A DNA stretch of 62,347 nt, filler included, from Perkinsus olseni (taxonomy: Eukaryota): NCBI GenBank assembly GCA_013115125.1. It is 2 parts of 2 records of this genome, joined end to end, with 100 filler letters (N's around TTAATTAATTAA, not from the genome) between each part and the next. Parts side by side here need not be neighbours in the genome. Positions count along the whole stretch, not along the records: positions 1 to 31,135 come from JABANN010000415.1; positions 31,236 to 62,347 come from JABANN010000416.1. One strand, 5' to 3'. This document shows positions 7,301-60,594 of the stretch, in pieces. Numbering within the stretch: position 1 is the first letter of the stretch; each line of letters begins with the position of its first letter. The translations under genes and the position numbers were made by a program. The notes below the pieces were generated by a model that was not told the origin of the DNA, did no database searches, and saw only the letters and a list, made by a program, of their open reading frames with translations.

Positions 7301-10300
7301 TTCCTTGTCCCTGAGATTTTGACTGCACAAATCGATCGGCAGAGCCTGGTTGTTCACTGAGGCCGCCAGTGAGCTTGACTATCCTGACGAGATTAAATAC
7401 TCTGATAATTTAGCTCCTGGCCACGCCGTCCTCGCCTTTTTAGTCGTCGGTTGACGATTCATCTGGAGAGGAGGTCGGTGTCCCTCACGGAAGATACGGC
7501 CATTCGGCGGCGATGGTCATCTTGGATGCTGTCGTTGACCCTGACAATGTCCGCCGACAGTAAGTGTAGAGGACCTTCTTGGCGACCCGCTGGGTGGGGG
7601 ACTTTTCCAGCTAAAAACACGGATACGTACGAATCGAGTCTAATTGCACAGTCGACACGATCGCTCTCTCATCGTAGCTTACGATGACAGTCCGGCTCAT
7701 TTCCCATATTGCGTTATTGGCCTTGGCGACTCGCTATTCTGCTAGACTTCCGCGGCCACCCTCTGCGTAATTGAGCGTCGGTATCGAGTGGTCGTTTCGG
7801 AATGTATTTGGCGGCCTAGGTATATGTACATCTACGGTGGTATGAGCATGAACTGTCTCAATGGCCTCTGTAGCGATATGTGGAGAATCGAGGTCCCATG
7901 GGCCCCTACAGCGTGGGTCCCGGCGATAAGGCGCCCTGATAATGAAGATTGAATGCTAGATACTGGCCAACGATGACGCCACTCAGTGAGTGGCGAAGTA
8001 GACGTCCTTCTCGATGGGTGAGAATGAAAGATTGCAAGTATGGTGGCAGGTAGCAACGTGGAGCATCCGGATTGACCGAATTACGCCTGCGCCAGATTCC
8101 GGCATGGCATGGAAGCAGCCCCCTCGGGAGACTTGATATTCGTTTTTGGTGGCAATGTTGTTGGGAAATGGGAGAACTCTTTGCTGGTGTAGGTGAAGTG
8201 CCGTGGAACTCACCTTGCCGGGTGACCACGTGATCGTGTAATCACTCACACGGCAACAGCAATTCTGATAAGAGGCTCTTGCGGCTCTTATTGAGAGCCG
8301 TAGTATTAAGCATCACTACAGGAACAAGGGCAGCCAGCGCTAGAAGCCACGTGGATTGTGTGGCCACGTTATCACAGATAGGGAGATGAGACGACACTTC
8401 TCCGCTGAGAAGCTGCCATCATCCCAGTCCATTGCTAGAGCCCAAGTAAAGGCGCGCTGGATGTGCTAAACGCTAAGAGCCTGGAAGCTGAAGGCACCCT
8501 TACTAAACTTGCGAGATGCCGAAGATAGTTGTGAATCGGGAAATGCGGACTAGGCTCGAATAAATGGAAGTTTTTGTGCGTCCGAGTTTTTTCGTCGAGA
8601 TACCGAACATCGTCTGACTCGTGGGAGGTTGAAGAGACCCGAGGGTATCGATACTTCACTCGGAGCGCTATAGATTATCTGGGAAATCAACAGACAACTG
8701 TGGTGAGAAGTATCTTGACGACCAGCGACCTCTTTGTCTAGAATGCCCCCAATCGGTATCGTGACCCTCTCAACTCAGCATCTTCGCTCTAGGTACCGGA
8801 TCTGTCTAAATTCCGAGAAGATAAGCCCGAAATGGATACTTATGGGCCGCAGGGCACACGAGAAGGAACCGCCGATTTGGGTTAGTTGAACTAACCTAGA
8901 ACTAACTTAGTTCCCATACTCGGGAAATCGACCGGATTGCAGCGCCTTTCTCAGGCAGTTCTAACTTGGGAAGTGTGAGCGAGGGAAGTTATCCCTCGCA
9001 GCAAGCAGTGGAACGGGGTCGGACCTCTCCTCAGGCTTTGATTCCCACGCTCTTCCTCAGGTGACTTCGCGATGTGTACAGTACAGAATCCCCCAGACGA
9101 CGGCGATGATGATGATGACCGGGTGGCGCTCAGCGATTTAATCGTGAGCCCGAAGCACCGCTCCGCTACTCATTCCTTGTCAAGGCCCAAGTATATACTC
9201 AGGTGATTGGCGGCTTCAGGACGTACGAGTCTCCGTATCCGAACGAGAATGCTTCTCTCAATCCGTACCCTACCTATCCGTAAGACCAGGGGTTTGCCGT
9301 GGGTCTGCGGACAGTACCCGATAGGTATTACTTGGACGATCTCTGGTACTATAGCACGTCCGGTCTCTTGTGGAGGGAAGTGTTCACAGCGGAGAAGAGA
9401 CCAACGCCACGAGTAATGATTAGCGTCAGGGCTCACGGTGACGCTAGCGTCCTTCGTGAGTGCTTTCTGTCCATTTCCGATGCCCGTGGATCCCGGTAAG
9501 CAAAAGTAGTTCTCTTTCCGTGATGGAACCCGTCCGACACTCTGCTCGTCTGAGTCCCCAGAATCGTACAATCCCTGGCGGAAGATGTATCGAGCCACAT
9601 GCCCTCGCAGCGGCCCGTATCCAATAACATTATTCGTACGGGGAAGCCTCACACATCAGTCCCGCAGGCAAAAACGGCATTGGCGGGCCCAAGTGAGACT
9701 TTCAGGTCAGACGCGGAGCGGCTGCAGTCACTCTGAGGGACCAGACAGGAGACGCTCAGCTGCTCATGATCGGAGGAAGGCATCATGACGATCTCTTCGA
9801 GGATATGTGGGTGAGTAAATGGCAGTGCTAAGTGCAGCATAACGTCGGGCGGCGGTCTCGGTCCATAGCGAGCGACGAGGATCGTCGTGACACGGAAATG
9901 AAGTCTGCCTTAAACGCAGCTTCACGCTCTACTCAGCAACACTCAGATTCTGGACGTCCAACGCTCTCCTAGAGGGGCGAGGCAGTGGAGCAGAATTGAC
10001 GGAACGATACGAGGACGGAAGCCACCACCAGCAGCTTATCATACGTAGGACATGCAACTGCGTTATGCAGTATCCAGCACACAAATTCTGTCCCGAAATT
10101 TCATATGTGTCTGTCCCTACATATCCTAGCTTGGCGCGGATTCTCGGTGAGAAATTCTCACTACCAAATTGGTAGTGAAAATTTCTCACCGAGAATCCGC
10201 GTAGTACCAATCCCGCTACTCATTCCTAGTAGAACTATTCTGCATTCTTGTGTTGTGACACCGTAGTTAAGACGCATGTTTCTTCGGATGACGTAGTTGA

Positions 10301-13292
10301 GAACTCATCTCAAGAAGCTGAGATTGGTCCTGGGGGTCATCGGCTGCGGTTCGTCGCCTCTAACCATTGGATTCTAACGCGAAGACGCGAGTAAAGCTCG
10401 GATATTAAATAGCTCCTTTCATCATAAAGATTCGTTCCCAATGTCTCGAGTCAGATTGAATTATGCTAGCACAGCCACTGGTGACATGGTGGTGCTGCTG
10501 GGTGGCTTGACCTGGTCGAAGACCCGCATTGCAGAGACGGACGTACTGCGCGATCTCGATAGGAGATGCTTCAAGCAAGCGAAGGTTGGTCAACCCTTCG
10601 CAAAAACGTATGATGAATCGCAAACTTCATGAGCCTCGGTTTGAGCTGACGACTCGTTATTGACGAGTCGCGATAGGACGGAGTCTGTAAGCGGCTAGCA
10701 GCCACTCTCATCGAAGCTAGTTGAAAGCCCGTAGCGGATGCCTTGCGGAGGTCTGTGAGAACTCTCGACGATCTCCTGTCCCTCAGGATATCTACAGCCA
10801 GTTCTGCACCGAGGACGGGAGCTCCTGTGATCTCGACAGAGCTTTCGAGAGTATCGAAATGCAGTGTAACACAACGAATTCTGAGAGAGATGGCGAGAAC
10901 CATGTTGGCACCTTCTGCTGCGAGGTGAGAATTTTCGTGGATACAAGGTTGCCAAAATCATTTTGGCATTTTGGCAAAATGACGATCCATTCACTGCAGC
11001 TTGCGGCCGAGCTGTCGATGCATTGATCTCAGCCAAGCTGTTGAGGCAGAGCGAGACGCAACTGTGTCCTGAAGATAATGCGTTTCATTGCGCCTGCCCG
11101 AAGCGGCCCAGTGCTGAGAGGAGCCTTTAGATTTCGCCTCGTTCCGAGGGAGAATTTGTCGCTCGCTTTTACCAGAGCTTGTGAGAGTTATTTGAACTAG
11201 GGCTGTTTTTTGAGTGAAGGAGAGACGACCTCTCTTTGAGACGGCGAGGAGGACCCCCGATCCGAGTGCAACTCGATGCGTGTCATTTCGACCTCGTCAA
11301 CCGATCCGAGTGTAAGTGCTGCTCAGGTCTTGGCGGATCGCGACTCTATCACGACGGCTTCTGAGCTGTCGAAGAAGTGCAAGGCGTTGTGCCAGACGAA
11401 CGCCTTCTCAGCCGAGTTCGATACCAGAATTTCGGAGGGCGTCTGGATCTTTCATCCGAATCGCTGCCCCAACGATTGCACCTCGCCAAGTCATGGAACA
11501 TGCGTAGGGGACTGCCGTTAGGATGCAAACAGGCTGTGGGCAACAGCCGTATCACTATCTAAGTCACTACCGTCCTCTTTGCTTTGGCTACACGTAGAGG
11601 CTCTACGGTAGAGCTCGTCCGGGGGGTTTTCCAGTCTACGATTGCTTTCGTGGGAACTTAGCAGGGGGGGGTCCAGGATCCCCGATGCCCTCGGATTTCT
11701 GTGGTGGACGTGGCCCACGCAATAGTGTCCACAATCCGCTATAACATACACGCCTCGATGGTTGAACCTCAGTGACGCTCGTAAGATGCGTTCGGGAGTG
11801 AGAAGCGATGAGAGCTTCAACCTTCGTCAGCGTGCGTCCTTCCCTCCGTCGCTTAGCGCGCTGAGGCTTCAGGTTGGAGCTGTGGCTGTAGCTCATATTT
11901 AGCTAACTGTTTCTCACTCCCTGTCGAGCGAGCTCTCTTCCCCCTCTCAAATATGGTCAAATCTATGTGACTGAGGTGCGGTCGACTTTCTGACCGTACA
12001 TGACTCTTGGTCAAATTCGCCTGGTTCGCTTTGTGATATGGTCCTTCGTTCAACATGATCGGAGCTCCTCCGCCCTCCTGAGTTGAGGGGACATAAGTGC
12101 TGTACGTGGAAAAGCTCATTCCATAATCTCCTGAATCTCATGGTCGTGATATATCTGGTCGGACATCATCGTACAGCTATAAAATGTCTTCCAGCTCTCC
12201 CCGAGGAATTTTCAAGAAATTAGTTTAGCGAAATAATCTCTTGTTTAGGAACTCTCCCGTTGTATTTGCAAGGTCGGATGGTTCGGGGACGACTGTAGTC
12301 GGCCTCTCTGCCCGGGCAGCTTCTGCGTCACCGAGGAGCGCACCCTGGCTCAACGCTGTAGAGAATGATCCCCATGACGTGGGGCCCAGGTGATGGTCGA
12401 CCTTTCCTTAGGTACATTCTGCAGTCAGCGAGGCACTTGTCTCGATTCGGGTGAATGTTCCTGCGAGGGTGGATGGTCTGACAGAGATTGTTCATCTGCT
12501 CACTGCCATAATAACTGTACCGCTCTGTTGGGACGTGTGGCCTCCTGGCTGTACTCATAGAAAGCCACTTTTCTTCGATACAAAAATAGCTCTGCTATAG
12601 TGAGTTGGGGAATTCATCACGCGTCCAGAAACCCCCGGTGGAAGTGAAAAGGCAGTGTTTCACAATTTCTCTTCTGGACCTGTGCATATAGTCAGCAACT
12701 AAGCAGGAGTGTATTATTCACACAGAGATTCTCGAGTCTTGCGCGTTCACTGGCAGGTTCATCGACTCCGGAGGTAACCCGAGGTGTTTGTATCAGGGAT
12801 TTCCCACACCACCAGTGCCACTGTCTCGACAGGTGGGAGCGACAAAGATCATGCTGCTTCGAATCGTGTGATCGTGCTATAGTAAAGTCGCCAAATGACG
12901 CTGACTTTTAGCATGCGCTTAGGGGTATGAGACTCAGAGTCTGAGAATCAGACGCTACTCAACTAAGCAAATATCTCAGTGGTGCTTACTTTGCCCCGGG
13001 CCCTTGCAGCTTTTGGATACTAGGTAGATACCACCGACCTTAGATACGCTGGCCATTTCTGTGAAAGAGAGATGTGCGTGAGCGACTGTAGTGGTCATGG
13101 CGACTGCATCGCTGGTGAATGCCGGTGTCATGAGTAACCCGAAAGACTGCTTGTAGTTTTTACTGCGCTTTGTGGCGTGTTAGGTTTTACTACGGAGATG
13201 ACTGCAGCATTCTCATACCGCGTGCGAGAGCCATCCAGATGACTCCCTCTATGGCAATGACAGTGATTATACTCAGTCACTTCCTACTGTAA
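1400..13292 (+). CDS. large multi-exon Kelch-repeat + tenascin-type EGF-repeat extracellular protein (attractin/MEGF8-like architecture), probably GPI-anchored; 5' boundary uncertain
   Basis: Kelch exons: APSARFAHTAVLY (~4770-4815), RYLLVFGGRT (~7000), EELWRYDLMENQWDFIKP (~7190-7245), YMYIYGGMS...CSDMWRIE (~7820-7890), RFRHGM...IFVFGG (~8095-8150), YYLDDLWYYSTSGLLWREV (~9325), LLMIGGRHHDDLFEDMW (~9760-9810), MVVLLGG (~10490). EGF exons join in phase across GT-AG introns: CPNDCTSPSHGTC|ELSRCICKVGWFGDDCS, CSQRGTCLDSGECSCEGGWSDRDCS, CHNNC|SSTPEVTRGVCIRDFPHHQCHCLDR|YAGHFCE, CVSDCSGHGDCIAGECRCHE|FYYGDDCS. Hydrophobic tail MAMTVIILSHFLL then TAA at 13290-13292. An N-x-S/T-rich exon lies at 2321-2550; exons at 1.4-4.5 kb may belong to this gene or to a separate one. 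Confidence 0.78.
4835..5409. mobile_element. 575-bp non-autonomous hAT-type MITE inside an intron
   Basis: Exact 8-bp TSD GCCAGGCT at 4827-4834 and 5410-5417. Imperfect TIRs: left CGGGTGCACCAATGTCC, right (revcomp) CAGGGTGAACCACTGTCC. A-rich and T-rich mirrored subterminal tracts. Removing the element plus one TSD leaves a 49-bp GTGAG...CTAG intron (4816-5447). Confidence 0.88.
6460..8613 (-). CDS. putative antisense exon clusters nested in long introns of the Kelch/EGF gene (unknown protein)
   Basis: Exon 6660-6578 (ATLMRLIHHIMLNYQADAISPLTADRR), a 34-bp GT-AG intron and exon 6543-6460 (AHTTLSKARKVRERGLNLNTIESAASLE, GTAAGT donor) join in phase. Exon 8613-8504 (DVRYLDEK...HNYLRHLASL), a 47-bp GTAAGG...CAG intron and RAFTWALAMDWDDGSFSAE also join in phase. 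Confidence 0.45.
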
Positions 13293-14340
13293 GGAGTGGT
13301 GACAATGACGACGCTACGGTTCGATGCGTTATGACTGTTTCGTATTCCTTGCATACGCCCACTCGCGTTTTTGGTAAAGTGATACCTGCTCTACCTGATA
13401 CAGTCTACCATGCGTCACACAAGATGAGACCATGGGGGGACTCGGGAACACTTTCTGGGCGAATAAAATGAGTAAGCTGGCCGGGCTTTCGGCTACGAAA
13501 CTGATGGTCCGGCAAGCGTGCGTGGAATGCTTGGGAAGTGTAGAAAACGGACTGGGTGAAGTGTTTTGGAATGAACGATCGTTGTGAGGGCGTGAATGGA
13601 TGAAACGATGTGCAAAAAAGGATTGACCGAAAAGATCGTGGATGAACTGGAGAGCCTCCAGTGGAGGCGGACGAACCGAGCTGGACTGAAGTATTACTTC
13701 AGAAGTAACGTGGACGAGTCTAGGTTTACGAATTCACTCATTGACGGAAAGATCGTGGCCGGAATATACCATGGGCGGAACGTGTCCGTTTGGAATCCAA
13801 ATAGCCCGGGGTAGCTCTATCCAAACCTTGGATGGAGGTGAAGATTCGCCATTCAGTATACGCACTGGTGGTTTATATTATCTCATCAGTGGTATAAACC
13901 CTTGCCAAGGGTCCTGACCAAGGGTGCCTTGGTCAGCAGTCGACCGTATCTAGGGTTCTAGGAGTACATCCCGCATCAGCTGGTACAGGGCACCACAGAG
14001 CGCTGACGAACAAAAAGTTTAGGACCGATGTCTATACCTCAGCGTGTCACTCAGCAGAGTCTAACAGTATGACCCACACTCCTTGGTGACGTTTGCTGGA
14101 GCAACACTCACGAGTGAAGTCGTCCTGCGGGGCTATGTGGGCTAGTGGCATGATAGTCATGCCATGATTCTCGCAAAGTCGTGTCTCGCTGCGCATACGC
14201 CTCTCGGCGACAGATCCTGGAGAATTCCGAAGTTCGCGAGAAGCATCGTATTCCGCGGCTGACTCAGCCGAGACTTCTTCTAATAGACCACCTAGCCTGG
14301 CTGAGTGGTCCATTGGAGGAAATCTCGCTGTGGATGCTAA

Positions 14341-14530
14341 AAATCCTGAACTGGTTTCTCGACCCCGCCTTCGATACGTTGCTATGAGGGCTGCCTGACG
14401 CCCAGTGGGGCCCGAGTTCGGTTCTCGTTTCCAGTAGCAGATTCGAGCCTAGCAGATTGTGCCGCAAGTTGAGACTGCCGTCGGGTCTCTGTCTCTGCAT
14501 GTGTCATGTCTCTGCATGAAAGTCCACGAG
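14341..14530 (+). repeat. diverged direct repeat, copy 1 (copy 2 at ~17754-17932)
   Basis: CCGCCTTCGAYACGTTGCTATGA..CTGCCTGACGC.CAGT.GGG..CCGAGTTC.GTTCTC ... TCGGGTCTCTG ... GAAAGTCCAYGAG is shared by both loci, with indels. Confidence 0.7.
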
Positions 14531-14546
14531 AAGGACCTGACTGTGT

Positions 14547-15000: not shown

Positions 15001-17274
15001 CTACCCCTCCCTCTGCATTTCTGAAGTTCGCGTCTCCAGCCACTCATCGAAAGTTCCGGGTATAGCCGGGCAATACCATCCGGCTGATCTACCAGCAATT
15101 CTGGGTTTGCGATGACCGGTAGCGGCGGTGCGAGGATTTTTGCAAATACTACAGCGCACCATCTTTCTGGGCGGCTCAGAAACTTGATCGTGAGCTTCGT
15201 GATGTGCACTCGCATCGGCTTCACCAGGTTTTGTATTCTGGTAACGAACACCTTCTACTGGCTCGCTTTCAGCAACCGGATCGGTGAGCCCTGGCTTGCA
15301 TTTAGAACGACCACGGTTGCGCTCGCCCGCCTGTCGAGCTGCCCTGATTCTCAGAAACTCGGCCATCTGACGGGTCTCACGCCAAACGTCGAAGTCGCCA
15401 TCATACGTAGGACAGTACCAAGGTCCGACGTGTCGTCGACCTTCATATACTACGTAGGGTCGGCGGTGTGTTCCTACATGGAAACACTGTGAGAAGCGGT
15501 CAGTCTCTGTGAGTCTGGACCTACCCTTTCGGACCTGGTGGCAGAGGCCGCACCTCACACCTTCTATGACTGGGATCTGCTTGGAATCCTTGTGTGGCAC
15601 GGGCGGCGCTGGTTCTGCAGGGAATTCTGGCTGGGCGACAGGTCTTGGTTGCTCCGCCTGGCTTGCTACAGCTGGCGTGTAAGGTTTTGACCCCGAACTG
15701 AGGACCGACCTCATGCGCGTTCTTCTCGCGCCTGTCTCAATATCTGGCACTCGAGCAGCCGCATTAGCCTGTTCTCGTTTCTTGGCGTTGGCATACTGCT
15801 CAATGTGGTATCGGGATGTATCGAAAATCAGAGCTTCCGGATTCTCAGCTTTTTCCGCCAGGAACCATCTAAAATACTCCTTGTAGACTGCATCAAAATC
15901 TTGACCATGTTTCTCGAGCAAGCTGTCAATCTTGTTACACATGATCAGACTGAACCTTTCGGGCCTAGTTTTTTGCAGGAAATTGGAATGTTCGCCGAAC
16001 ATGGACAGCTTCGCAAGACGTTTGGACGTACTGCCGCTCGATTCAGCCCGCGCGTGGCGTTGAAGCCGCTCTTCTTCTGCAAGTCCATGTTCTGCCTGTA
16101 GTATTTCCATGACGTGATCTAGGCTCATCCCGATTGCTTTGACCTCGTAATCGTGTAGCAAGTCGACATCATCAGACTCCGCTACAGTATCGGCTGGGCT
16201 TGGGGCTTTCTGTGTGTTATCCTCCACGTCTTCTTCGAGAAGAATTTTCCGAAGAGCAGCGGTATAGTGGAGACCAAAGCGTTCTCCTAAAAGATTTCAC
16301 GGCAACACAATATGTGATGGGATAGTCCCACAGTCGACATACCTGTATCGGTCATATTCATCACCAGCTTTGGGTATAGATCCACCCCTCCATTATCCAA
16401 CGCCGACCCTCTCAACCTCAATAACAGGTCATTATCAAGGAGAGGATATATCGCAGTGCTGTCCACCTTTCGGCGAGCACGTCGATTGTGGCGAGTGATG
16501 CCGTCCATAACTAGAACTTGAGTGGCTAGGGAGCCGACATTTGGGCCTGCCAGGAATTTGGCCTGCCACCCATGTATGCCTTCGAGTTGGCTGCTTCCTC
16601 TATAGCAGCGATAAGCGGGTAGAGATGCCTCAGGCTTCCCTTGAAAGTCTACGTTGCCGAGGTTTTCGTACAGAGGCAGAACGGATGGGTCTGGGTCAGA
16701 GACACATCCTCTTCGGATATGGCGCAGCTGAGCAGCGGAACACGAGTGAAACAGGTTTTTTAATCTGGCCGTACCTGGTTTTCCAGGCATTTATCGAACC
16801 CGTCGGGCCCGGGGGGTAGGAGAAGCTCTCCTTCCCACGATACGGACCTGGCCGCTTCGACAACGGCCAGAATCCGTTCTTCCAATTCTGCCGGTTGAGG
16901 TATTTGACGCCTCACATGACGATACACCCATGCCGGCGACGCTCTGATCTTTTTGGCAGCTTCTGCTGCATCCGAGATGCCAAAAGCCACCATCACGGAT
17001 TGGATGAGCAGGCGTAAATCGTCTTCATTGATCTTAAACATCGCCTGAGTGAAGAAGGAATACACATACGATATGGGTGACATAGCAAATGATCATGCGA
17101 CAGACGACGATTAGGTTGATCGTGATATGGCACATGATGATATGACAGATGATGATAAGGCTGACATGGCAGATGACGATATGGCAGATGATGATAAGGC
17201 TGATTTGGCAGATGATCAATGAATCAGTCAGCGAGCCATCTGTCGTCGACGAATGATGATCTCACCTGTGCCAT
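15001..17274 (-). CDS. N-terminally deleted Dada-type DDE transposase, 4 exons, 649 aa as spliced
   Basis: Exons 17274-17266 (MAQ), 17044-16775, 16727-16343 and 16286-15001 total 1950 nt, with all three GT-AG introns in phase. Motifs: HVRRQIPQPAELEERI, ENQ|LRHIRRGCVSDPDP, YRCYRGSSQLEGIH (catalytic-Glu region), TG|ERFG, and two C-terminal CxxC...H...WYCP...W Zn-finger-like units. These match from memory the Dada/DUF6729-associated transposase family. Confidence 0.8.
17075..17220. repeat. degenerate minisatellite (ATGGCAGATGATGATAAGGCTG-like units) in the first transposase intron
   Basis: Repeated GGCAGATGA(T/C)GAT and GATGATAAGGCTGA units are directly visible. Confidence 0.75.
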
Positions 17275-17294
17275 TTCAGAACGTCGCTCAGACG

Positions 17295-17329: not shown

Positions 17330-17753
17330 TCGTTATGTCATCTGGCCTGTTGGAGTGAAGGTCCCGTAAGGGAGCAAGTTCAACCAACGGACGAGGCCAC
17401 CATGGCCTGGCCACGGGGCGCGCGCCGTTGGAAATTGGGTGTGGGCAAAACGATGGGGGCGACCATTTGAGTGGAATTGGGCTTGCGCTCAGACGGTTCT
17501 TTATAAGCTGATGGGTGACACTGTCACCGTGACAGTAGGTCAGCTCGGATTCACGTGGAGCTGATTCCTACTGTGGCAAGCCTCCGGGGTAACCCGGGGC
17601 TGTCCTCCGCAACACACCTCATCAACTAAACGAGAGTGGTAGCCACTCCGTGACATTGGCGATGTAAATACCCGTGCCCGGGGTAGCAAGGTTGAGGAAG
17701 TCTCACAGTGAGACTTGTAGCACTCAAAGTGAGACTCTCACTTTGAGTGCTAC

Positions 17754-17932
17754 AAGTCCTGAGCTCGGTTCTCGGTACCGCCTTCGACACGTTGCTATGA
17801 TAACTGCCTGACGCGCAGTAGGGCCGAGTTCTGTTCTCCTTTTCAGGTTGTGCCCAAAACGAGGCTGCAATCGGGTCTCTGCGTGTGTCATATTCGGCGA
17901 CATAAAAACCGAAGGATCCGAAAGTCCATGAG
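17754..17932 (+). repeat. diverged direct repeat, copy 2
   Basis: Aligns by eye to 14341-14530. Confidence 0.7.
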
Positions 17933-18259
17933 CTCCTGTTCTACTTTTCCCCGAGCACGTGAGTTATTTTCAACCCACGAAGCATATCAGGTGAGGATCA
18001 ACTCGGTGTGTTGGTCTGTAACGGTTACGGTGTAACTTCAAACAAAGGCAACTATCGTAGCCTTCTCCATCAGTGGCAGGCAACCGAACGAAATGCGGGA
18101 GGGGGCACAAGAAAATGTAAGGAATCTCTAGATTACTAGCCTTTAACCGTACAGTAGTACAACCAATGGTTTCACGGCAAATTCAGCTGTAACACCAATT
18201 ATTGACTTCATCAGCTGTAGCCGGAGACAGTATCAGTGATACTGTATCACGCACCAGTC

Positions 18260-18330: not shown

Positions 18331-19227
18331 CAGTGGAAGACCAAAGTCAGCCAAAGTAGACCCAATGACTTATGACTATAAGTCATAGTCAATGCAAGGC
18401 GAGGAGGAGCGTGAAGTTCATACACCTAGTTAAATGCGGGGGTCTAGAGTATTAGCTATGCACGTAGTAAACTAGCGCGATCGGCGCATAATGAGTGAAA
18501 AAATGCCAGCCATGATTATGCAAAGTGCTTCCAATACTCGGACACAGTCAGTCAGGCTCTGGCTCCCAGTGGAGCCGTTTCCCTCTGAAGCTCGAACCTC
18601 TGCGACTACGGAGTCGTCATGACTCAGTCGTGGCAACCGGGCGAATTTATTAACGCGCGAATAGCCAAAAGACTAGGAACCCTTGAACTCGGAGACATTT
18701 GAACCCTCTAGCTCACCCGTGCCACGTCGCCGCCTACACGTCTTATTTAGTTGTTGTCTCGACTCTTTTTTTGATGCGTGTGACCCTTTGGCGCATATCC
18801 CATCAGCTGACTTGCACGAGTGGCCGTTGGTGTCACTCCCTCGTCATCATACGAGCACTTTTTATCTCTATAACGGGAAGTCAGTGACGAACCGCTTGAC
18901 ACAACCACTAGTCTACCAGCGGTAGAGGCGCCTGTTACTGGAGACAAAGAGCGCCTACAGCATAGCTAGGCTAGGCTAGATCTAGTTGTGGCCTCAGCCT
19001 AGCCAGTTCAAAAGATTCTTGGCTACATGTGCCAGAATCGTCAAGTTGATGCTCCTGTCGAAAGTAGAACGATGCTCTTTCTGGTGTATGGCATACACTG
19101 TATGCATTTACATAGCCCACGTGTTGCCGTGGAAGCCACGACACATACAGCGTTTGTTACATGGTATCTGCTTCGGATTGTTTGCCTCCATGCTGCAGCA
19201 TACTCCCATAGGTTCGCTGCCTTCCCT

Positions 19228-20539: not shown

Positions 20540-22036
20540 CTTCGTAAGCAATGACGCTTTCATGGACCATGAATCATGGTCGGAAACCACTTTTTCGCTC
20601 AACACAGCGTTCAAGTGCCGGCGTGATAGTGGCAGCCAGGGTAAGGTTTTTTTTAAATACCTCTCTGGCTTTTGCGTCATTTGCTTCATTTGGGGATTCT
20701 CGCCCTTGACGAAAAGTATTTCTTGTTTTCCTTATCCTTTGGTGAGGTCCTCGGGTGGACAGTCCTCAGTAGCCCACCCGCATGGTTCCTATCATCACTC
20801 ATCAATGTTCAGCGCTATCCCTCGGCTGATCGCTGGTGCCCATGGCTGTGCGGCCGGTGTCCCTGGCTGCGATAAGTCGCTTTCTTCTTGTTTTTTGCTC
20901 GGGCCGAGCTATGGCCGTCGACTGCGGTATATATTTATAATTCCGCTAACCAAGTGAGCTGGAGATCTTAACGGTGATGAGTTCAGTTCGAATGCCCGCT
21001 TCTAGCACTCGTTGTTCTACATTGACTCGGCCTGCAAGGCCGCTAAATCATGTAGGTGTCACCCACTAGGTGGCACTGCTAACAAGCTGTCAATAACCGA
21101 CTAGAAAAGCTTCGCAGGCTTAAGATAAGCAGGATTGCGAATTTTGGAATTACACTGTTAGTAACATTCTGTTACATCTCAAGTGCACACGTGCATGTTG
21201 AAGTTCTGAATCGCACCGCGGATGTCACGGTGACATTGTCACCTCGCCCCACCTCATCATCCTCGGGGGGTCTTTTTCCGAGGGGGAGAACCCTTAAAGG
21301 GTTACCCTTTCACGGAAGGACACGATATGACGACTCAGGTTCCTTCTGACAACTCAATACCAATTGGAACGAAGTGAACTGTGTTGAAAAATCCAGCTAC
21401 AAGAATAGTGTGATGTAACACCTTAACAAAACGAGCCGATTGACGCGAAGTAAATAACACTTACTAAAAACAGGGCAATCGCGCAAGGGCATGGGGAACA
21501 GCGATCTACTCAACCACAGATCATCATCTTAATTAACTATCGCTCGCCCTTTAACACAATCCACATCAGCGATACTAGTCCTTCAATTAAGGCGTTACGC
21601 CTCAGGCGTGGGCACTTGACTAAGACTACCACTTAAGGATATCAAATGCGAAGAATAGCACCGATTGCTGGCCGTGCGAACACGCATGTACCCTAACACT
21701 GGACCCGTCCAGCTTGGGACCGTTTATGGCAGAGCAACGGTGACGCGGTTCAGGTTGAAGGTGGGAGGGCTGAATCCCATTCGGAAAGGCAACGGGCGGG
21801 TCACGCAGAATGTCGCAGACCCGCTCAGGTCGACGTAGCATAGAGGAATTAAGAAGGCATCCGGGAGGTGGTCCACGCTCCTCCGCAGCAGCAGTCATTG
21901 TAACTGCCGTGCGTCAATTACCACTTCAGGTTTTGAAGATTAGATATAGGTGATTGTAACACAGCTAGAACAGGATCATCATCATCATCATCGGAAATCA
22001 CTAGGTTGCCCTCTGTAATGTTTATATTGCAGATCC

Positions 22037-28975: not shown

Positions 28976-30189
28976 ATGCGCCGTCGTTCTTTCCTACCAT
29001 TCGGGCGTCATCTGCTGTATCTTGCTATCCCAATACACGGGGAACCTCTCATATTACCCGAGGGAATCTACCGTAATCGAGATCCGATCGTAGGCGTGGG
29101 TAAACTGAGCGCCGCTCAGTGAGCGGTATCGAGATCGACGCGAGGGAGAGTACACGGGGGAGCCATGGTAAAGTGAAGTTGAAGTTGTTGAGCACTTTGC
29201 CAAACTACGATCTTTTGATACCGATGCACGAGCATTGCGAGCTGGAACTTCCTGGAGAAGCTGCAATTTTCCAACCCGGTAACCTGAAGTCAAAGCATTG
29301 CCTGCAGTTCGCGCCGGTCACGAGCGATCAGCAACATGTTCTTTATAGTTTCATCTCTGCAGCGTACGCCGAGCTCGGTATAACCGTCGCACCGCGTACA
29401 AAAGTTCTGAAAAGGATCACTATATGCTCGGTTGAAGGCAAGGGGTGGACTGTCTATCTCGGCAGGGGGCTTGCTTCAAGAAAGTCCGGAAATACCATTA
29501 ACTTGATCCATCCGGTCATGCTTGAATACTCAAGACCATCATCGAGTCTCGTGAGAGAGGATCATTCTCCTGCGGCAGCGAATGAAGCATTCACTCTGAC
29601 TCGCAGGATTCTTCCCAGGCCCGGCACCTTGGTTGAAGACGGCGAAGGTCCAAACGCTGTTCACGTTTTTATCAAGGAAATGTCGATTGAGGAGAGACAG
29701 GCGGAGATGATTATCACGTCCATCTTGCTAGAGCCGACTGATCCCATCATCAATGAGCATCACATGAAGTACACCTATCGCGACGTCAGATTTTCCGAGA
29801 ATATAACGGCGCTCTCTCTGCCTCCCCTTCCGCTAATACAGCTCAAAGATTGTGTTTTCATTTCGTACTCAGCGCCGACGAGCAAGATTCTCTCGGCTAA
29901 ATTGTGCTGGCGAATTGTAATTGACGAGAAGGGCGATGAGAGTCTTCGCGGATTCGCGACATCCGCAGCGGAAGCGCTGAGGGTCGCTAAGGTTGACGTT
30001 AAAAACATCTTGCTGTGCTACATGGACCCGGCCTGGCAATTAATAATCGGTCCAAAATTGATCAAGATGAAATATAACGAAGAGATCTCTGATGTCGAAT
30101 CGGCGAAGGGAAATTCCGGCTCGGATAAGCGACCATCGGTTGATCAAAATGAGGGAGCATCGTCGAAGAGGGTCAAGCTGACCCACTGA
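28976..30189 (+). CDS. hypothetical protein, weak N-terminal signal peptide, basic C-terminus
   Basis: Exon 28976-29072 (MRRRSFLPFGRHLLYLAIPIHGEPLILPEGIY) and a 47-bp GTAATC...CTCAG intron (29073-29119) join in phase to the 356-codon ORF ending 30189. Confidence 0.7.
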
Positions 30190-49300: not shown

Positions 49301-52006
49301 GCGGCGGGGCCCGGCCATCTTGGCGGTTGGTCGAGAGCCTGTATCGTGCCTTGAAGGACGGCCGGTAGACAGTAGTCAACACAGCTGACCCGCTATGACT
49401 CCTTCAGAGGAACTGGTCGCCTGCTCAAGCTCCTGCGGTCGCTCGAATCGGAGTCGCGGTTCGTCGAGCTGGATGCTGACGGCGATGGACGGATATCCCC
49501 AATGGACGTCGGATGTGCTTCTGCAGCGTCAGCTGGCGGCGGACCGAGCCTCTGCGTAGTCTGGGTCGATCACGCTGGGTGCCTGGGAACCGTGGCTCCT
49601 TCAGTCGGCCTATACTAAGCTCATGTCCCTCATCCCATCGGAGGATCTGGGTCGACGGGAATGGCAGGTCCTGGTGCTGACGGATCCCGAGGCGTTGCCG
49701 TCCGGGGCATCCCTGTTTGTCTCTAAGTTAGCCCTCTCCGCTGCCGCGACTTTAGAGTACCATCATTTCAACCACTCAGATTGGCTGAGCTGTATGATGG
49801 GTCTGGCGATCCTCTCGCGCACCACGAGGAGGTTCTTCGATCCTTCCCTGAGGCCATCCGTGCGTCTATAAGGGAGTACATCACTTCTGATGACGGTAGG
49901 CCGCCCTTGTCTCAATGGCGGTAGGGTCATTACCCGATTTACTTCAGTCAAAACCACCACTACGATCCTGCGCGTAGCCGTCGCGCGAGGGGAGTTGGCG
50001 CCCCTGCTCGAAAGCGGGGAGGGCACTGTTGTGGATGTGATCGGCCCTATCGATGCTAATGGTGACGGACGTATCGATGTTGAGGAGTTCATGGACTACG
50101 GTTTGGCCATGGAGGCCCCGAAAGGCGTCTTCTCCACGGAGGTGAGGTTTGATTATCCTCGCTTCCCCACGTGGCCCCTTGAAGGCTTCAGGCAGGCGCC
50201 TCTCGCGTCATCCGCTCAGGCCTTCGACTCCCTTCTCGATATTGGCGATGATACGATACCGAAAGACATCCTGGTCATGCTGGGTCGGCTATGGAGTCGT
50301 CACAGGTACCCCGTTCTTGAGTATTCATGTCCATCCTCGCTCCCTTCAGGCAGTCCATAGTCCTTCTTGGAGCAGCCTTCAGTGCCCTTAATATGGAAGC
50401 GAGATTCGGCCTGCTGGATACCGACAAGGACGGGGTCCTCTCCCCTGGCGGGTTGCCCGCCTCTGAGTGGACGGCAGACAGTTGGGGGTTGGAGGTGAGG
50501 TCCGTGATCACTTTCTACTGTGTGGCTGCCTTCCGTGGATGAGAGTACTTCAATACAGCGATGATTTCAGTTGCTCTCCCTCATCGATCTAGACAGCAGT
50601 TGGAGTATTTCGCTCGGGGAGTGGCAGCATTGGTCTCGTCTGGAAGCCGCGGCGCCGTTAGAGCTCCGACGAGCAGCCCTTCTGGTGATGCCAAGGGGGC
50701 GCATGCGAACTTCGGGTGGTGCACTCCGAAGGGCTTTCAATGAGCTAACTAGGGAGACGCGAGCAGTCGCTGAGGAGTACCTCGATTACGATGGCGATGG
50801 TAGTAGGTGCAGATGGATCGATTCGCCCGAGTCGCGCTCAGGTACCATCTCTGCGGGTGAGTTGGGCATGTTAGGGGTGTTGGCTGATGACAGTGAATCC
50901 CGAAAGTTATGGTATAAGCAACTTTACCACGGGTTTGAGTCGGTGCGTGGAGCCTCGTCGGGCCCGGCAATATCGCTGTTACAAACCGGACATGGCACGG
51001 CGGATAGAACAGAGAAGCCTGGACGAGGGATGGACCTGCAGGGGTTCGAGGTGAGCCCTCGTCCTCGTCTGTCGCACAGGAGGACAGGAGGGACTCCATT
51101 GGAGGTTTAAGTATTACTTGGGCATGTTGACAGTATTTACCAGGCCTCTATGGGTTTGATGATCATAGCCATCTATGATGGCCTTATTGGGGCAGGCGAG
51201 TGCGATCATTTCACAGATAGGCCGCTTGAGGGAAAGACTCTCCCGAGCTGGGCCGGCTTCGAGTCGCCACAGCGAAGCCCTACCTTTTTCGCTCCCTTTT
51301 CTGACACCATTCGACTGCAGTTCTGCACTTCCGCACCTTTGTAGCCGCTGCCCTTTGTAGGAGTATCTCGAAGCAACTTCCTCGAAGACACGCGCTGCGG
51401 CATCAGCAGCCTTCAACTACCTCGATACCGATGCTGATGGAATAATCAATAGCGTGAGCTGCCTCCTTCACACGATCATCTGTGCGGCTCGCATTCTCGA
51501 CGTTGACCTCAGGATGAAGCATTGGCCCTTGAAGGGGTGAGGAAGTTCCTCAGTGACTATGGATTCATCCGCCTTGTGGCAGACACTATCGCTGTGTGGG
51601 CACAGGAGGTAGCGTTGCGAACTCTCTCGGGATATGCCTGAGTAGTGTCTTCGACTTTCCGTGCCCTCCCCTTCAGGTTTCTCAAGCGTCCTCCATGGAC
51701 GTCATCTCTTTGGATAAGCTCGCTTCTCACGGTGACGGCGGTCAGTGCAGTGGTCGTCAACTCGGGGCCGAGCTTTATGAGGTGGGCGATAAGCCACGAA
51801 AATTCAATAAGCCTTTGCCGCTGTCCATCTGTCTCTCTGTCGACGCTAACCCGAAATCATGGCAGGCATACAATATTTTCGTACCGGAGGAGCTCGACGA
51901 GATACCCTGGCAGCTCTGGCGGCTGGTCGTCTGGCGGCACCTCACCAGTGAATTCGTGAAGGGAGCGGACGAGATCGGTCCATGGGCATCCCTGCATATT
52001 GAATGA
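31349..52006 (+). CDS. giant multi-exon EF-hand repeat Ca2+-binding protein locus (one gene or two tandem paralogues); 5' end lost in the gap
   Basis: About 30 EF-loop-like motifs across exons, e.g. DLDRDGFVSLSEF (~33315), DLDGDGSLSRKEL (~34226), DLDRNGSISRPEW (~34755), DEDGDGLINLPEW (~41360), DTNRDGYISRYEW (~41853), DRNEDGRLSGEE (~42904), DIDMSGRITPDEL (~43798), DEDRSGRLSMEEL (~46300), DLDGDGSLSPAEL (~47050), DANGDGRIDVEEF (~50052). Large acidic exons at 32.0-32.9 and 38.1-40.6 kb. Final exon ...PWQLWRLVVWRHLTSEF...LHIE ends TGA at 52006. Confidence 0.8.
32284..32605 (+). repeat. coding tandem repeat, 48-bp unit (GDHYSETVEEEKSGHT) x ~7
   Basis: Visible in the DNA and in ORF 32050-32898. Confidence 0.95.
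38549..38890 (+). repeat. coding tandem repeat (DGHPE1-4), 15-24 bp variable units
   Basis: GGTCAYCCTGARGAGGA units in ORF 37994-40606. Confidence 0.95.
39887..40110 (+). repeat. coding tandem repeat, 63-bp unit (DHGEDGVVEDVDEGREGLLEP) x ~3.5
   Basis: Visible in ORF 37994-40606. Confidence 0.92.
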
Positions 52007-52095
52007 AACAGCATGTGTCCACTACGTCTAGTTTCGCATCCGAGACGTCACCTTTCTGATGTTCGAACGCCTTTGTGTTGACCCTGAGTGTTATC

Positions 52096-52755
52096 ATGCC
52101 TCCCCACTGCGTCTCGTCACTACTGCGAGTGAGCTACACTACAGCAGGCCATTTCCCCGATGGTCGTGTCGTTGCCTTGGCCGCTGTCAGTCTTTCGGAT
52201 AGTACAGTCGTTAGTACAGCCCGGCACCAGTGCTCATTGCAGGCCACCCATCGGTGCAGGTGTTACTTCGAACGGAGAGTATGTCTCGAGGGACTCAGCT
52301 GGGCTTCGACGGAAGCCCACGACCCCCACCTACGATCCGAAATCACGAGTGACACGGGAGGAGCGAGGCATCGTGCCCGCGCACGTACGCGATGTTAAGT
52401 TAGAAGAGCCTGTCGCTCGCCTGGCTACTGGTGGCAGCAGAATGAGCTCGCCTGAGGCGCCTCTCGCTACTCGTACATCCTTCAAAGGTTGTGTTTGATA
52501 AGGAACCTTCCTCGATTCAGTACCCATCGCGGTCCTGAGATACATCAACCCGAGCCCTGGTTCCGAAATCGATTAGTGGGGCGGTCGCGGTTTCCCTCAC
52601 GACGACGCTGGCAGGACAGCAGCCAAACCTTCATGCAAGATGGGTCTCGGAAGAAGGTTGTTACCTTTCAAGGACGCAGCTTGGATATCAAATTTTGGGA
52701 TACTTTCGGCGAATTAAGAGAAAGGTATTGGCTGCAGCTGAGGAGAAGGGCCTAA
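52096..52755 (+). CDS. possible small multi-exon hypothetical gene
   Basis: Protein-like exon candidates flanked by AG/GT, ending DIKFWDTFGELRERYWLQLRRRA-TAA; splicing not fully resolved. Confidence 0.35.
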
Positions 52756-54782: not shown

Positions 54783-55093
54783 TCATCGTTGCTGAAGGCC
54801 GTGGAGCGAGAAGTTATCGGTTATAGAAGTGTTCACACTATTACCCTTCAGGTGTCTGTTCGACGGGTGAGGTCGTTGACCAGCCGTCAAGGATATCAGC
54901 CCGTATAGACAGAAGTTGGGCGACGGGCCTCGCATAAGGAGTTCAATTTCGTTAAGGAGTCCCTCAATTTCCAAGATCAACTCGAGGTAGGAACTGCGGC
55001 TGTACACGGGCAATGGGCCTGCCACGTGCCTCCCTCTCGATAGCATCGGCCACCACCCGGGTATAGTGTCCTCGAGCGTATCGTCGAGAATCT
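54783..55093 (-). CDS. possible exon of an unidentified minus-strand gene
   Basis: After a CCCAG acceptor the frame reads ILDDTLEDTIPGWWPMLSRG...YLELILEIEGLLNEIELLM; no family recognised. Confidence 0.3.
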
Positions 55094-55358
55094 CTGGGCA
55101 CCCAGCTCAGTGGTGATGTGGGCGATCGTGACAGACTTGAGTTCGCTATGTTACAGAAGCGGGCGACGCCTGATGAACCCGGTCACCGATGGGATGAACC
55201 AAATCGTTTGGAGTCCCTCGATATGCATTGATCCAACGCCCGACCACGTGTCCATGGCTCCGCCTTTCTCATGTCAAAGATGCCTTGTGTTCAGCGGTAG
55301 TGGTCACCACAGGGTGCGGTCATATAAGATTCTCGTAAATGAATCCTCACTCATCCCC

Positions 55359-57242
55359 ATGAACTCGTCCACCCTACAAGCGATTTTCTTTGTGTCTGTT
55401 GTTTTTCTAGCCCGGCTGGGTGCAGTCCCTCTGTTGGATTGTACGGGCCAAGTGGAGTGGGAAAGGTTCCGTCACCTCCTCGCACAGGATCACCTAGCTG
55501 GTTATGCCATCTCCAGCGAGACTTTAGCTGTGGCCTCGAGGCTGGTCGAGGAACACCAGTCCGACCTGCTGCCAGATAGCAGCCTCCCGTACAGCGCCTC
55601 CCCTATGATGATGCAGTTCTGGCTGCAGGCCAACGGTCACGAGCATCGGCCGCAGTGCCTTTACGGGGCGGCAACTGCCTTGTGGATTCTGGGACGTGCC
55701 GGAGGTGACGAGGAGCTCCTCAGGTTGGCCGACCACCTGCTCGGAGCTACAGAGACAAAGCGGAACCTGGCTTTCCTGGAAGACTCCGGGTGGCCCTTGA
55801 GTGTAGTAGCGCTGGTCGAGGCCGCGGAGCCGTCCGAATCGTCCATACAGCTGCTGCACGAGGATCGGCCGCGAGAGCCGCGACTGTCCCCGCCGATACC
55901 AGCTCGTTATACTGGTGAACTGGCGGGATTGGTGGTCTGGGAGGTGGGAGTTCACGCCTCTCTCAGTGCCGAGGTGCTCAACATGTTACGGCTCGTTGGT
56001 GGTTCGAAGCTCGAGGGTCATCGAAGGCTGTTGCAACGGCAATATCCTCCCTGGTTGTTGGACATCTGTGGTCAGCTCTACTCTGGCTCCATTGGCTGTG
56101 ACACGCACCGAGATGAGCTCACCGACATATTTGAGTCCTACCTACCCGACTCGGACACGTCGAATAGGGAGCTCAGTTGGGAGTCTATAGAGGCCATGAG
56201 GGATAGGCTAGCTGCGGCTGGCTCGAGGGCAGCAGGGCCGATGCCTGGCATGATCGTGTGCACTGTACCGGTACTCTGTGTAGTCATGGCGGGCCTGGCG
56301 GGGAAGGTCGGAGCGATGGTGGTGGGCTACTTCGGCCACCCTGCCCTCTTTATGGTCGATAGAAGCAGTGATGATGGCGATACCAGCGCGATGGTCTGGT
56401 CGGCACTTGTGGAGATGTCTCGGAGTGGGGTACTGATCACCTCCGATCCTTTCCTTAGCATGCAGTACGAGTACCAACTAGGACTTCACCTACCGTTCAT
56501 CCGTACTCATGGCCTATACACTCATGCCACCCATCGGCCGATCTTCCGGAATCACGTTTTGGTTTGGGACAGACCACACGACACGGCTCTGATGGGGACG
56601 CTACAGCACGTCGTGGACCATCTATTCGGCAGTGCCGATCAGCCGTCAGCAGAACAGCGATGGAGCGATGAGCCCGAACTTCGGGGCAGCGGACATGACC
56701 CTGAAGGCCAAGGCTTCCGTACTATTGCCGGCCGTTCTCGCTTTCGGTATACCCTGGTCACCCGCAAGGCGTTGAAGGATACCAGCTACCGCTACCTGAG
56801 CCGTTTCAACGCAATAGTGCTCTTCCCGTACGACATGGACCTGGTCACTTTCTATGAGATCTATTCGATGTTCATGCCCATCTTCATGCCATCATCGCTC
56901 GACAAGTACATTTTCTTCCAGAATCACAAGGCCTACGATGGTCGGTTCACTGCAGAGCCTGCTCAACTGTGGCAGAGTAACTCGACCAGCCCCTTCGATG
57001 AAGGCGATCCTCGAGCTGTTCAGGAAATTCTTGAATTTGTGGACTACTTTGCCCTGCCGGGGATAAGGCATTTCGGCAGCCTGAGCGACCTTTTGAAGCA
57101 ACTCCAGGATTTTGGTGTTCTAGAGGTTGAGCAGGCGAGCCGACAGATGCGTGATTTCTTCCATGAAGAGTTGACTAGGAGTGTGGAGTCATGGCGGAGG
57201 GTGTGGCTTCAGGCGCAGCACTACGGATCGTCAGAGAGCTGA
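55359..57242 (+). CDS. secretory-pathway protein, putative glycosyltransferase-like, single exon
   Basis: Long ORF (55110-57242) with probable start MNSSTLQAIFFVSVVFLARLGA (signal/anchor). The C-terminal YRYLSRFNAIVLFPYDMDLVTFYEIYSMFMPIFMP resembles the GT-B nucleotide-sugar-binding segment (inference). Confidence 0.65.
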   Translation: MNSSTLQAIFFVSVVFLARLGAVPLLDCTGQVEWERFRHLLAQDHLAGYAISSETLAVASRLVEEHQSDLLPDSSLPYSASPMMMQFWLQANGHEHRPQCLYGAATALWILGRAGGDEELLRLADHLLGATETKRNLAFLEDSGWPLSVVALVEAAEPSESSIQLLHEDRPREPRLSPPIPARYTGELAGLVVWEVGVHASLSAEVLNMLRLVGGSKLEGHRRLLQRQYPPWLLDICGQLYSGSIGCDTHRDELTDIFESYLPDSDTSNRELSWESIEAMRDRLAAAGSRAAGPMPGMIVCTVPVLCVVMAGLAGKVGAMVVGYFGHPALFMVDRSSDDGDTSAMVWSALVEMSRSGVLITSDPFLSMQYEYQLGLHLPFIRTHGLYTHATHRPIFRNHVLVWDRPHDTALMGTLQHVVDHLFGSADQPSAEQRWSDEPELRGSGHDPEGQGFRTIAGRSRFRYTLVTRKALKDTSYRYLSRFNAIVLFPYDMDLVTFYEIYSMFMPIFMPSSLDKYIFFQNHKAYDGRFTAEPAQLWQSNSTSPFDEGDPRAVQEILEFVDYFALPGIRHFGSLSDLLKQLQDFGVLEVEQASRQMRDFFHEELTRSVESWRRVWLQAQHYGSSES

Positions 57243-59754: not shown

Positions 59755-60594
59755 TTCATACAAGCATGACTACGCTAGGCTCGATGAAGCTTTCTCTTTG
59801 CAACTGACTTTGCATTCTGCGTTGAGGGTATACAGTGGGAGATGACCATTAACGGGATGAAGGGATATGGAGGGTATACTCGGCTCATTCTTTGATGCTT
59901 TCGAGTAGAGAGTTGTGAGTAGTTTTCCGAGCTGGCAAAGCAAGTTCAGCGACATGCCTTCAGGAGGGAGTTCGATCTGATGATCAACAAATGGAATTTT
60001 GCCGAGGAAGGCAGAGCTTCCAGATGGCTTCCCTGTTGTCTGATATCTTTTCTTACACAGTGACCCAGTCCACCTATAACCCATCATTAACTCCCGCCGA
60101 TCCGCTGCATCCGAGCTACTCTTGGAATTCGATCGCCTTCACCAGTTGGAGTGTCTGATTGCAGCGGACTGCTACTGACCAGTGGTCAGTGACCACTCAA
60201 GGTGGATAATGCCAGGCTATTGCCCCTTTCGAGGCTACACACTACTCCGAATGTTCTGAATGAACTCGAGCCGAGTTCGATCCCGGGACGTCGCACTTTT
60301 CTGTCATTATCAAAACCAACTTGAATTCGGCGTGGCAACCAGAATCCCGATGGCTACCATATCGGCGGAGCGGTTATGGAGGACAATCAGAAGCCGGACG
60401 ATTGTTGTACAAGGCTGAGCTTTCACTCAGGGGAGCCGCAAACCGGCTGAAGCGGGAGAGACATGCCTTCTTTGGAAGAGTTCTCTTTTTTCCAGAACTT
60501 GAGGGGTTATCTTGGAGGTTCGAGTTCGGGACTTTGGAGCCGCTGATGTTATTTCTGTGTATCCTAAAAGCTGTAGTTGTTGAGTGTCCCCAGA

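Follow-up and report, generated by a model that had tools for sequence, protein, structure and literature searches.

Palindromic 22-nucleotide scars in Perkinsus DNA as probable excision footprints of a transposable element, most likely hAT-like, with an 8-base-pair target duplication

Cut-and-paste transposition usually erases its own history, as excision sites are mended with tiny, unrecognisable changes. The closest described footprints to those reported here are left by hAT elements such as maize Ac/Ds, Tam3 and the insect Hermes. According to passages of two reports (PMC1978519, PMC8151067), these elements have in common an 8-base-pair (bp) target-site duplication, a nick placed one nucleotide (nt) into the flank and hairpins formed on the flanks; their excision converts the element-adjoining base into its complement and leaves short palindromic additions and joins at microhomologies. 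A one-nucleotide 5' overhang is given for hAT cleavage in a section of PMC8151067, and Ds footprints in Arabidopsis and yeast are explained, in the relevant part of PMC1978519, by flank hairpins followed by microhomology joining. Here we analyse a stretch of Perkinsus olseni DNA of 62,347 bases (referred to as the window), which consists of contig A (positions 1 to 31135) and contig B (31236 to 62347), joined by a spacer (31136 to 31235) of 44 N, TTAATTAATTAA and again 44 N. Short palindromic scars are dense in this window, and they are probably the excision sites of an element that made 8-bp duplications. Their mending was stereotyped and left a 22-nt signature whose copies can be counted and mapped and whose decay allows dating.

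In its compact form, the scar consists of the first seven bases of an 8-mer X, the complete reverse complement of X and the last seven bases of X (X[1-7] + revcomp(X) + X[2-8]). An exhaustive scan of the window revealed 18 exact 22-mers, 17 in contig A and one in contig B, while the analytic expectation by chance is 0.00025. Nine further scars carried one deviant column and 14 carried two, although at least four of these 14 are shifted re-reads of stronger sites. In 20 sequences simulated with a second-order Markov model, the means per simulation were 0 exact copies, 0.05 copies with one deviant column and 0.9 with two. The decayed copies (9 and 14 compared with 0.05 and 0.9 expected) thus argue for a real, ageing sequence, and since perfect, one-change and two-change copies coexist, the scars appear to be of different ages. 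When the length of the word was varied, the exact pattern occurred 29 times at k = 4 and three times at k = 5, was absent at k = 6 and k = 7, reached 18 copies at k = 8 and was again absent at every length from 9 to 14; the counts at k = 4 and k = 5 come from short patterns. In total, about 45 scars were found in 62 kb, mostly in the 31 kb of contig A: 18 perfect, nine with one change, about ten independent ones with two changes and at least eight of an extended form described below.

The constituents of the pattern were also in excess when counted separately. Odd palindromes, i.e. those with a central base, numbered 42 at arm length 7 (3.9 expected from 10 simulations), 11 at arm length 8 (0.6 expected) and four at arm length 9 (0.2 expected), with single cases at arms of 10, 16 and 23. 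Even palindromes were not enriched in the window compared with the same 10 simulations, with one versus 2.8 expected at arm length 7 and three versus 1.2 at arm length 8. Direct 6-mer repeats displayed a strong excess at an offset of 14 only (50 versus 10.3 expected); at the other offsets from 6 to 39 the counts ranged from 6 to 27, with 9.4 to 13.3 expected. For a pairing test, every odd palindrome with an arm of 4 or more was combined with any other no farther than 90 nt away, and it was checked whether the seven bases to the left of the first centre and the seven to the right of the second overlap as one t-mer. Specificity for the 8-mer, which corresponds to a centre spacing of 7 nt, had been set beforehand by a first-pass annotation of this DNA as the point on which its proposal would stand or fall. 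The test yielded 26 pairs for t = 8, 20 of them at spacing 7, as compared with 4, 3, 0 and 0 pairs for t = 6, 7, 9 and 10. Of these 26, 21 have at their centres the complements of the eighth and the first base of the 8-mer; the right centre is unchanged in two of the remaining pairs and three are otherwise irregular.

The exact compact scars, each given here with its 8-mer, are located at 316-337 (GCCGAGCT), 1043-1064 (AGGCCTCA), 3299-3320 (GAGACCAA), 3315-3336 (GACCAAGG), 3473-3494 (CATCACAT), 4511-4532 (GCCTCTCT), 11593-11614 (CGTAGAGC), 13687-13708 (TGAAGTAA), 17514-17535 (GGTGACAG), 18229-18250 (AGTATCAC), 19084-19105 (GTGTATGC), 20559-20580 (TTCATGGT, between two open reading frames (ORFs) of a subtilase region), 21222-21243 (ATGTCACC), 21289-21310 (AACCCTTT), 23315-23336 (TATGCTAC), 29105-29126 (CTGAGCGG, plus strand), 30517-30538 (CCAGAACG) and, as the sole exact one in contig B, 60175-60196 (CTGACCAC). 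The scars at 3299 and 3315 overlap, both being exact, and their target 8-mers are shifted by 2 nt; judged from the sequence, this presumably means two separate insertion-excision cycles at nearly one spot, the order of which is not readable. One mutated column is present in the compact scars at 6846-6867, 12370-12391, 13647-13668, 14148-14169, 17394-17415, 18611-18632, 21154-21175 and, in contig B, 37481-37502. The ninth scar with one deviant column, at 45734-45755 in contig B, has the first base of its 8-mer as right centre base rather than the complement of that base. All 11 sites listed in the first-pass annotation are present at the coordinates it gave. It had recorded the scars at 17514, 21222, 21289, 30517 and 60175 as exact, which they are, but with five of 18 it under-counted the exact form; its one-mismatch case at 21154 does carry one deviant column.

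In the extended scars, the two palindromes have longer or unequal arms. At 8880-8913 (GTTAGTTC) the arms are 8 and 7 nt with a 2-nt filler between them, and at 17698-17758 (GTCTCACT) they are 9 and 23 nt with 5 nt of microhomology at the join. Both of these sites, already proposed as extended cases, passed the 8-mer test with both centre bases complementary. Inspection by eye also bore out the third such proposal, 10135-10211 (CTACCAAT), in which the left palindrome has an arm of 33 nt (97% complementary) and the right one an arm of just 2 nt, and which has an older small palindrome nested in its flank. The last two, 8268-8300 (ATAAGAGC) and 13898-13936 (ACCCTTGG, arms of 7 and about 11 nt), were likewise judged by eye and fit only if one later substitution is allowed in the right copy. 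Two scars were added: 10950-10981 (CCAAAATG), with arms of 9 and 7 nt and an overlap of 2 nt, and 630-657 (ATCTCGAT), with two arms of 7 nt, centres 13 nt apart, an overlap of 2 nt and a right centre that is not complemented. These non-compact cases, with their fillers, unequal arms and overlaps of 2-5 nt, indicate that the two palindromes of a scar are independent objects. Because the arms extend past the 8-mer into unique flank, they are copies of the local flank and not a shared mobile sequence. A separate cluster at 506-568 comprises an arm-7 palindrome, a near-duplicate filler of 17-18 nt and an arm-16 palindrome, and allows two 8-mer readings one base apart; it may have arisen in two events or through templated insertion where the ends were joined.

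Each scar thus contains both copies of one 8-mer, each without its element-adjoining base. The left copy is followed by its own reverse complement, the right copy is preceded by its own, and the centre of each palindrome is the complement of the missing base. We consider it likely that the scars mark the excision of an element with an 8-bp duplication, with flank hairpins offset by 1 nt as in hAT, opened at least 8 nt from the tip, and with annealing of the inverted duplications. The element itself was most likely hAT-like. In such a scheme, insertion would leave the 8-mer on both sides of the element, and the transposase would nick one nucleotide into each flank. On excision, the element-proximal base would be lost from one strand of each flank and the hairpin sealed with the complementary base at its tip. 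The host would then open the hairpins 3' of the tip, at a distance of 8 nt or more that can reach 23-33 nt, so that two 3' tails arise, each terminating in an inverted copy of the duplication. These tails, complementary over 8 nt, would anneal, and flap trimming and gap fill-in would produce the exact 22-mer, which is 14 nt longer than the 8-mer of the empty site. The extended forms would arise where the ends were joined directly or at other microhomologies (2-5 nt). Opening at 8-33 nt from the tip presumably corresponds to an Mre11-type endonucleolytic cut on the 5' strand. A mechanism of this kind would explain why the length is fixed, why the centres are odd and their bases complemented, and why a single product dominates. 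Because opening at the tip and annealing of the direct copies would give a precise excision without a trace, the ratio of scarred to clean events is not readable. The observed geometry agrees with published hAT chemistry in that only odd palindromes are enriched, the complemented outermost base lies at the centre and junction microhomologies measure 2-8 nt. The initial proposal of a hairpin-excision footprint of an 8-bp duplication is therefore supported, while the assignment to the hAT superfamily stays at the level of a probable one.

If the scars are footprints, related sequences should exist that carry a single 8-mer, a state that had also been set beforehand as a test. The 14 extra bases of the 27 compact scars were removed in silico and the ORF spanning each site was measured. 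At 29105-29126, removal merged frames of 192 and 354 amino acids (aa) into an ORF of 547 aa. Of 2000 removals of 14 nt at random places in contig A, 0.1% gave a comparable fusion, defined as an ORF of 300 aa or more across the site with 150 aa or more to either side. At the other 26 compact and at five extended sites, the spanning ORFs measured 49-314 aa and were indistinguishable from chance. A homolog search with the downstream half of the 29105 frame returned three P. olseni protein clusters, and a cluster look-up added two more members. Two of these proteins, P0016 (355 aa) and P0022 (419 aa), cover the site; they carry the FOZ60 locus-tag prefix and come from separate contigs of another assembly. 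Both read ...GVGKLSGIEIDAR... unbroken through the site (...KLSGIEID...). The window's own frame reads ...GVGKLS on the upstream side and then meets a stop within the scar, and the downstream frame resumes with SGIEIDAR, so that the scar breaks an ORF that is continuous in the two homologs. P0022 is 100% identical over the 53 residues before the site and 95% identical over the 356 after it, and P0016 behaves in the same way. A single CTGAGCGG in its context translates exactly to K-L-S-G-I-E, as found in P0016 and P0022. Hence, the single-8-mer state is present in both of the two informative homologs, at the protein level and for one scar; P0017 and P0023 begin downstream of the site and are uninformative. 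The first-pass statement that all sites lie in introns or intergenic DNA holds less well here: the scar, which was not on the first-pass list, sits in sequence that is coding in these other versions of the locus, and P0016 and P0022 may be alleles or close paralogs of it. A metagenome scan with P0022 gave 46 pattern matches and 0 relatives.

A second and weaker case is internal to the window. The repeats at 14323-14434 and 17736-17846 share 80% identity, and a long-gap alignment places an uninterrupted paralogous site with one 8-mer-like word (ATCTCGCT, 14314-14334, plus strand) opposite the extended scar at 17698-17758. The scarred locus has 35 nt more than this paralog.

The public gene model at the 29105 scar treats the interruption in its own way. 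The ORF at 29104-30186 (361 aa, contig A) is 100% identical to the P. olseni protein P0015, whose model reads ...EGIY and then LSGIEID..., implying the removal of 29073-29119. Deduced from the comparison of model and DNA, the removed segment would be a 47-nt GT..AG intron on the plus strand that steps over the scar, with an acceptor AG made by the scar; it consists of 33 nt that are exonic in P0016 and P0022 and of 14 nt of scar. This intron may be truly spliced, or it may be the predictor's device for stepping over a frameshift. It is conceivable, but rather doubtful, that a frameshifting scar was here rescued as a new short intron to which it supplied the acceptor, in which case excision followed by hairpin repair of the Perkinsus type would be a route of intron gain. 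If true and recurrent, such gain would occur in perkinsids and dinoflagellates, a lineage known for repeat-bounded introns.

The 31 target 8-mers examined have almost no consensus. The target preference of hAT elements is nTnnnnAn, and the first-pass annotation had noticed a weak resemblance to it in T at position 2. Such a tendency is present but weak: T occupies position 2 in 10 of 31 and A occupies position 7 in 11 of 31 (symmetrised 21/62, p = 0.04). A stronger signal is that 8-mers beginning with T or ending with A are avoided (symmetrised 6/62, p = 0.005), which could reflect either the choice of target or the hairpin tips that yield such a repair product.

Several observations weigh against excision of a hAT-like element as the origin of the scars. 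Near-tandem 8-mers at offsets 8-9, the classical short hAT footprints, were not clearly in excess in the window, and the repair route would therefore need to be unusually uniform. The hAT-type target preference is as weak as stated, and the opening of hairpins 8-33 nt from the tip is a step that we infer from the scars. The empty-site proteins concern one scar, at the protein level, and are possibly paralogs and not alleles. A hAT transposase has a catalytic core with a C-terminal hAT dimerisation domain and often a BED finger, and hAT elements end in short terminal inverted repeats bordered by the duplication. A Pfam scan that covered 182 (179 plus the three longest) of the window's 204 ORFs with 90 aa or more detected no transposase family; the remaining 22 or so all overlap longer ORFs or coding repeats in contig B. 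A scan of the window for duplications combined with terminal inverted repeats stayed at chance level (36, 8, 5, 1, 1 and 0 hits for duplications of 5 to 10 bp), and no element-filled allele was seen in the window. Self-BLAST of the window found only three dispersed repeat pairs and no dispersed repeats resembling such elements. A high density of scars is possible without many resident elements, because, so the argument goes, scars build up at the rate of excision while the element moves on. Finally, the Perkinsus transposon papers found describe, in the passages concerned, Dada and Merlin-related sequences in P. marinus and not hAT (PMC3706591, PMC8101967).

Two features alone underlie the assignment to hAT itself: the strictness of the 8-bp duplication, deduced from the scars and their peaks at k = 8 and t = 8, and the one-nucleotide offset of the flank hairpin, visible as an odd palindrome with complemented centre. 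The same excision mechanism may be ascribed to another superfamily with long duplications, be it Mutator-like, Dada, Merlin or some other family with 8-bp duplications, although we regard this as unlikely. In favour of it are the Dada and Merlin-related sequences just mentioned, the lack of a report of hAT for Perkinsus in the papers found and the fact that the ORFs scanned hold no transposase that would decide the superfamily. A Mutator-like element (MULE) is the main alternative, since a section on the MULE Muta1 describes 8-9 bp duplications together with flank hairpins (PMC5499845). The length of the scars is, however, strictly 8, with no 7-mers or 9-mers, whereas MULE duplications measure 8-10 bp, those of Merlin 8-9 bp and those of Dada 6-7 bp. 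In the same section, the Muta1 flank hairpin is given as 43+43 nt, suggesting no offset and hence even palindromes, which are not in excess here, and more than 90% of Muta1 excisions are stated to be precise (PMC5499845); the one-nucleotide offset is reported for hAT, in the passage cited at the outset (PMC8151067).

Individual families were compared with the scars in turn. Mutator-like elements fit poorly, there being no 9- or 10-mer scars and no excess of even palindromes, although 43+43 nt is a gel size and an offset of 1 nt is possible. P elements make an 8-bp duplication and their footprints retain pieces of the element ends; the compact scars, which do not fit this, consist of local 8-mer sequence alone and have nothing in common from one to the next. 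Transib duplicates 5 bp, and an element of Transib/RAG type, with a flush hairpin, is at odds with the mere three exact copies at k = 5 and with the lack of an excess of even palindromes. Dada, which duplicates 6-7 bp and inserts in small RNA genes according to part of PMC3706591, would require scars at k = 6 or 7, where 0 exact copies were found, and the 8-mer targets are diverse. Merlin is compatible in length (8-9 bp in the passage of PMC8101967, which describes no hairpin chemistry), but no 9-mers were observed.

A host process that writes the pattern at single 8-mers without any transposon, e.g. through a hairpin-forming nuclease such as a domesticated transposase or through polymerase template switching, is very improbable. 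No element was found in 62 kb despite some 45 scars, the product is highly uniform and template switching does generate inverted repeats, all of which would suit such a process. A polymerase switch, however, has no reason to span exactly 8 nt each time; in template-switch mutation clusters the length of the inverted copies varies and is set by the local sequence, while the unit here is fixed at 8 nt. The pattern moreover requires two 8-mer copies with independent palindromes, a point best seen where extended scars have fillers and unequal arms, and a single cut at one 8-mer cannot supply two independent palindromes. The centre bases, in turn, fit a nick placed one base into the flank beside an inserted element. 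A sequencing, library or assembly artefact, which a draft assembly of two contigs joined by a spacer might lead one to suspect, is hardly credible, given that decayed copies of differing ages exist, that scars are sparse in the ORF-rich contig B, that the public gene model works around the 29105 scar and, as a weak point because some runs may be the source of the assembly, that 0.96-0.99 of the words sampled from a 10-kb stretch occur in six runs of two studies. No library method known to us would produce an 8-bp signature offset by 1 nt. Excision of an element with an 8-bp duplication, most likely hAT-like, is thus the explanation that we prefer.

Eight sequencing runs matched in all, two of which (X7 and X8) were diverged, with a word share of 0.29. 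Across the join of the two contigs, the G+C content changes from about 51% in contig A to 56-60% in much of contig B, and the ORF density shifts too. Contig A contains a subtilase gene at about 19.0-21.0 kb and ABC transporter pieces on the minus strand at about 23.9-26.2 kb, both recognised in the Pfam scan, as well as a tRNA-Pro at 26273-26344. The same scan revealed ORFs with EF-hands across contig B as well as a DEAD-box fragment in the window. In the ESM Atlas, no usable match was obtained for the 431-aa ORF at 15004-16296, and only the family was returned for an amino-acid transporter. This transporter ORF, at 53040-54503 in contig B, has its best database match in P. chesapeaki (86% identity), and a 732-aa ORF at 55044-57239 has its best match in P. 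olseni (81% identity). As the best matches of both are Perkinsus proteins, contig B is Perkinsus DNA. The protein collection searched held no full-identity entry for the contig B region, and on sequence grounds contig B may be a diverged haplotype, a paralogous region or an unannotated part of the assembly.

Coding tandem repeats were observed in contig B at 32233-32664, 38546-38922, 39151-39288 and 39823-40116, with periods of 48, 15-33, 69 and 63 nt. All except the first lie inside an 885-aa ORF (37949-40606) to which no Pfam family was assigned, and those at 38.5-38.9 kb encode acidic repeats of the Glu/Asp-Gly-His-Pro type. Short conserved motifs recur every few kb at 31408-48750 and 41746-52303 (repeat families D5 and D10), and six contig B ORFs have weak EF-hand matches. 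The recurring motifs and the weak matches suggest a large multi-exon EF-hand gene or a tandemly duplicated array of such genes. In contig A, the 5' part of the repeat pair 14299-14434 / 17736-17846 is similar to the tRNA-Pro gene (69% over 45 nt). ARAGORN called neither copy a tRNA, so that only this partial similarity to tRNA-Pro justifies the term tRNA-like. Scars lie at or beside the 5' part of both copies, namely the decayed 14256-14305 and the extended 17698-17758.

Extrapolated from the window, a Perkinsus genome might contain tens of thousands of scars. These would record the choice of targets and the activity through time of a transposon family that has gone from the sites in question. 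The scars would also be a natural readout of how hairpin-capped breaks are processed, which bears on the outcomes of genome editing in Perkinsus; a paper on CRISPR in Perkinsus contained nothing on repair genes. Within genes they are a source of 14-nt frameshifts, of which one case was seen (29105), and between isolates or haplotypes of this commercially important parasite of molluscs they could serve as presence/absence markers.

A resemblance to other described systems is limited to parts of the pattern. In Amoebophrya, a related alveolate, introner elements likewise have short direct repeats that bracket inverted repeats in or at introns, but what is repeated there is the entire intron, bounded at its two ends by direct repeats of 3-5 nt and inverted repeats of 8-20 nt, as far as the relevant passages of PMC7789003 describe it, and not a local palindromic insertion of 14 nt. 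The P nucleotides of V(D)J recombination and Transib excision are alike in that hairpins on coding ends or flanks are opened off-centre and leave palindromic additions. RAG and Transib differ in making a flush cut with blunt ends, in the account given in part of PMC8151067, which leads to even palindromes, and these are not in excess in the Perkinsus window. Within the main texts of the literature found on Perkinsus transposons, footprints, hairpins and inverted duplications, no report of the pattern was located; older reporter-locus papers may show similar long footprints. The Ds-like element Ascot-1 of Ascobolus immersus reportedly leaves diverse palindromic footprints, seen in experimental reversions at single loci, and repair after Ac/Ds excision in yeast is said to involve host-dependent opening of the transposon-induced hairpins and then microhomology-dependent joining, also at single loci. 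Published hAT footprints, in the passages available to us, add 1-3 palindromic bases, whereas the prevailing product in Perkinsus carries the complete 8-mer in inverted form, and arms of up to 23-33 nt occur. Studies of hAT footprints have dealt with a reporter locus, whereas the Perkinsus record is borne by the genome, is very dense and belongs to an element known only by its scars. The scars would be of an already known kind, the hairpin-derived palindromic excision footprint of a hAT-type element, and what is undescribed in the literature found is the stereotyped inversion of the full duplication, the arms of up to 33 nt, the genome-borne density and the perkinsid host.

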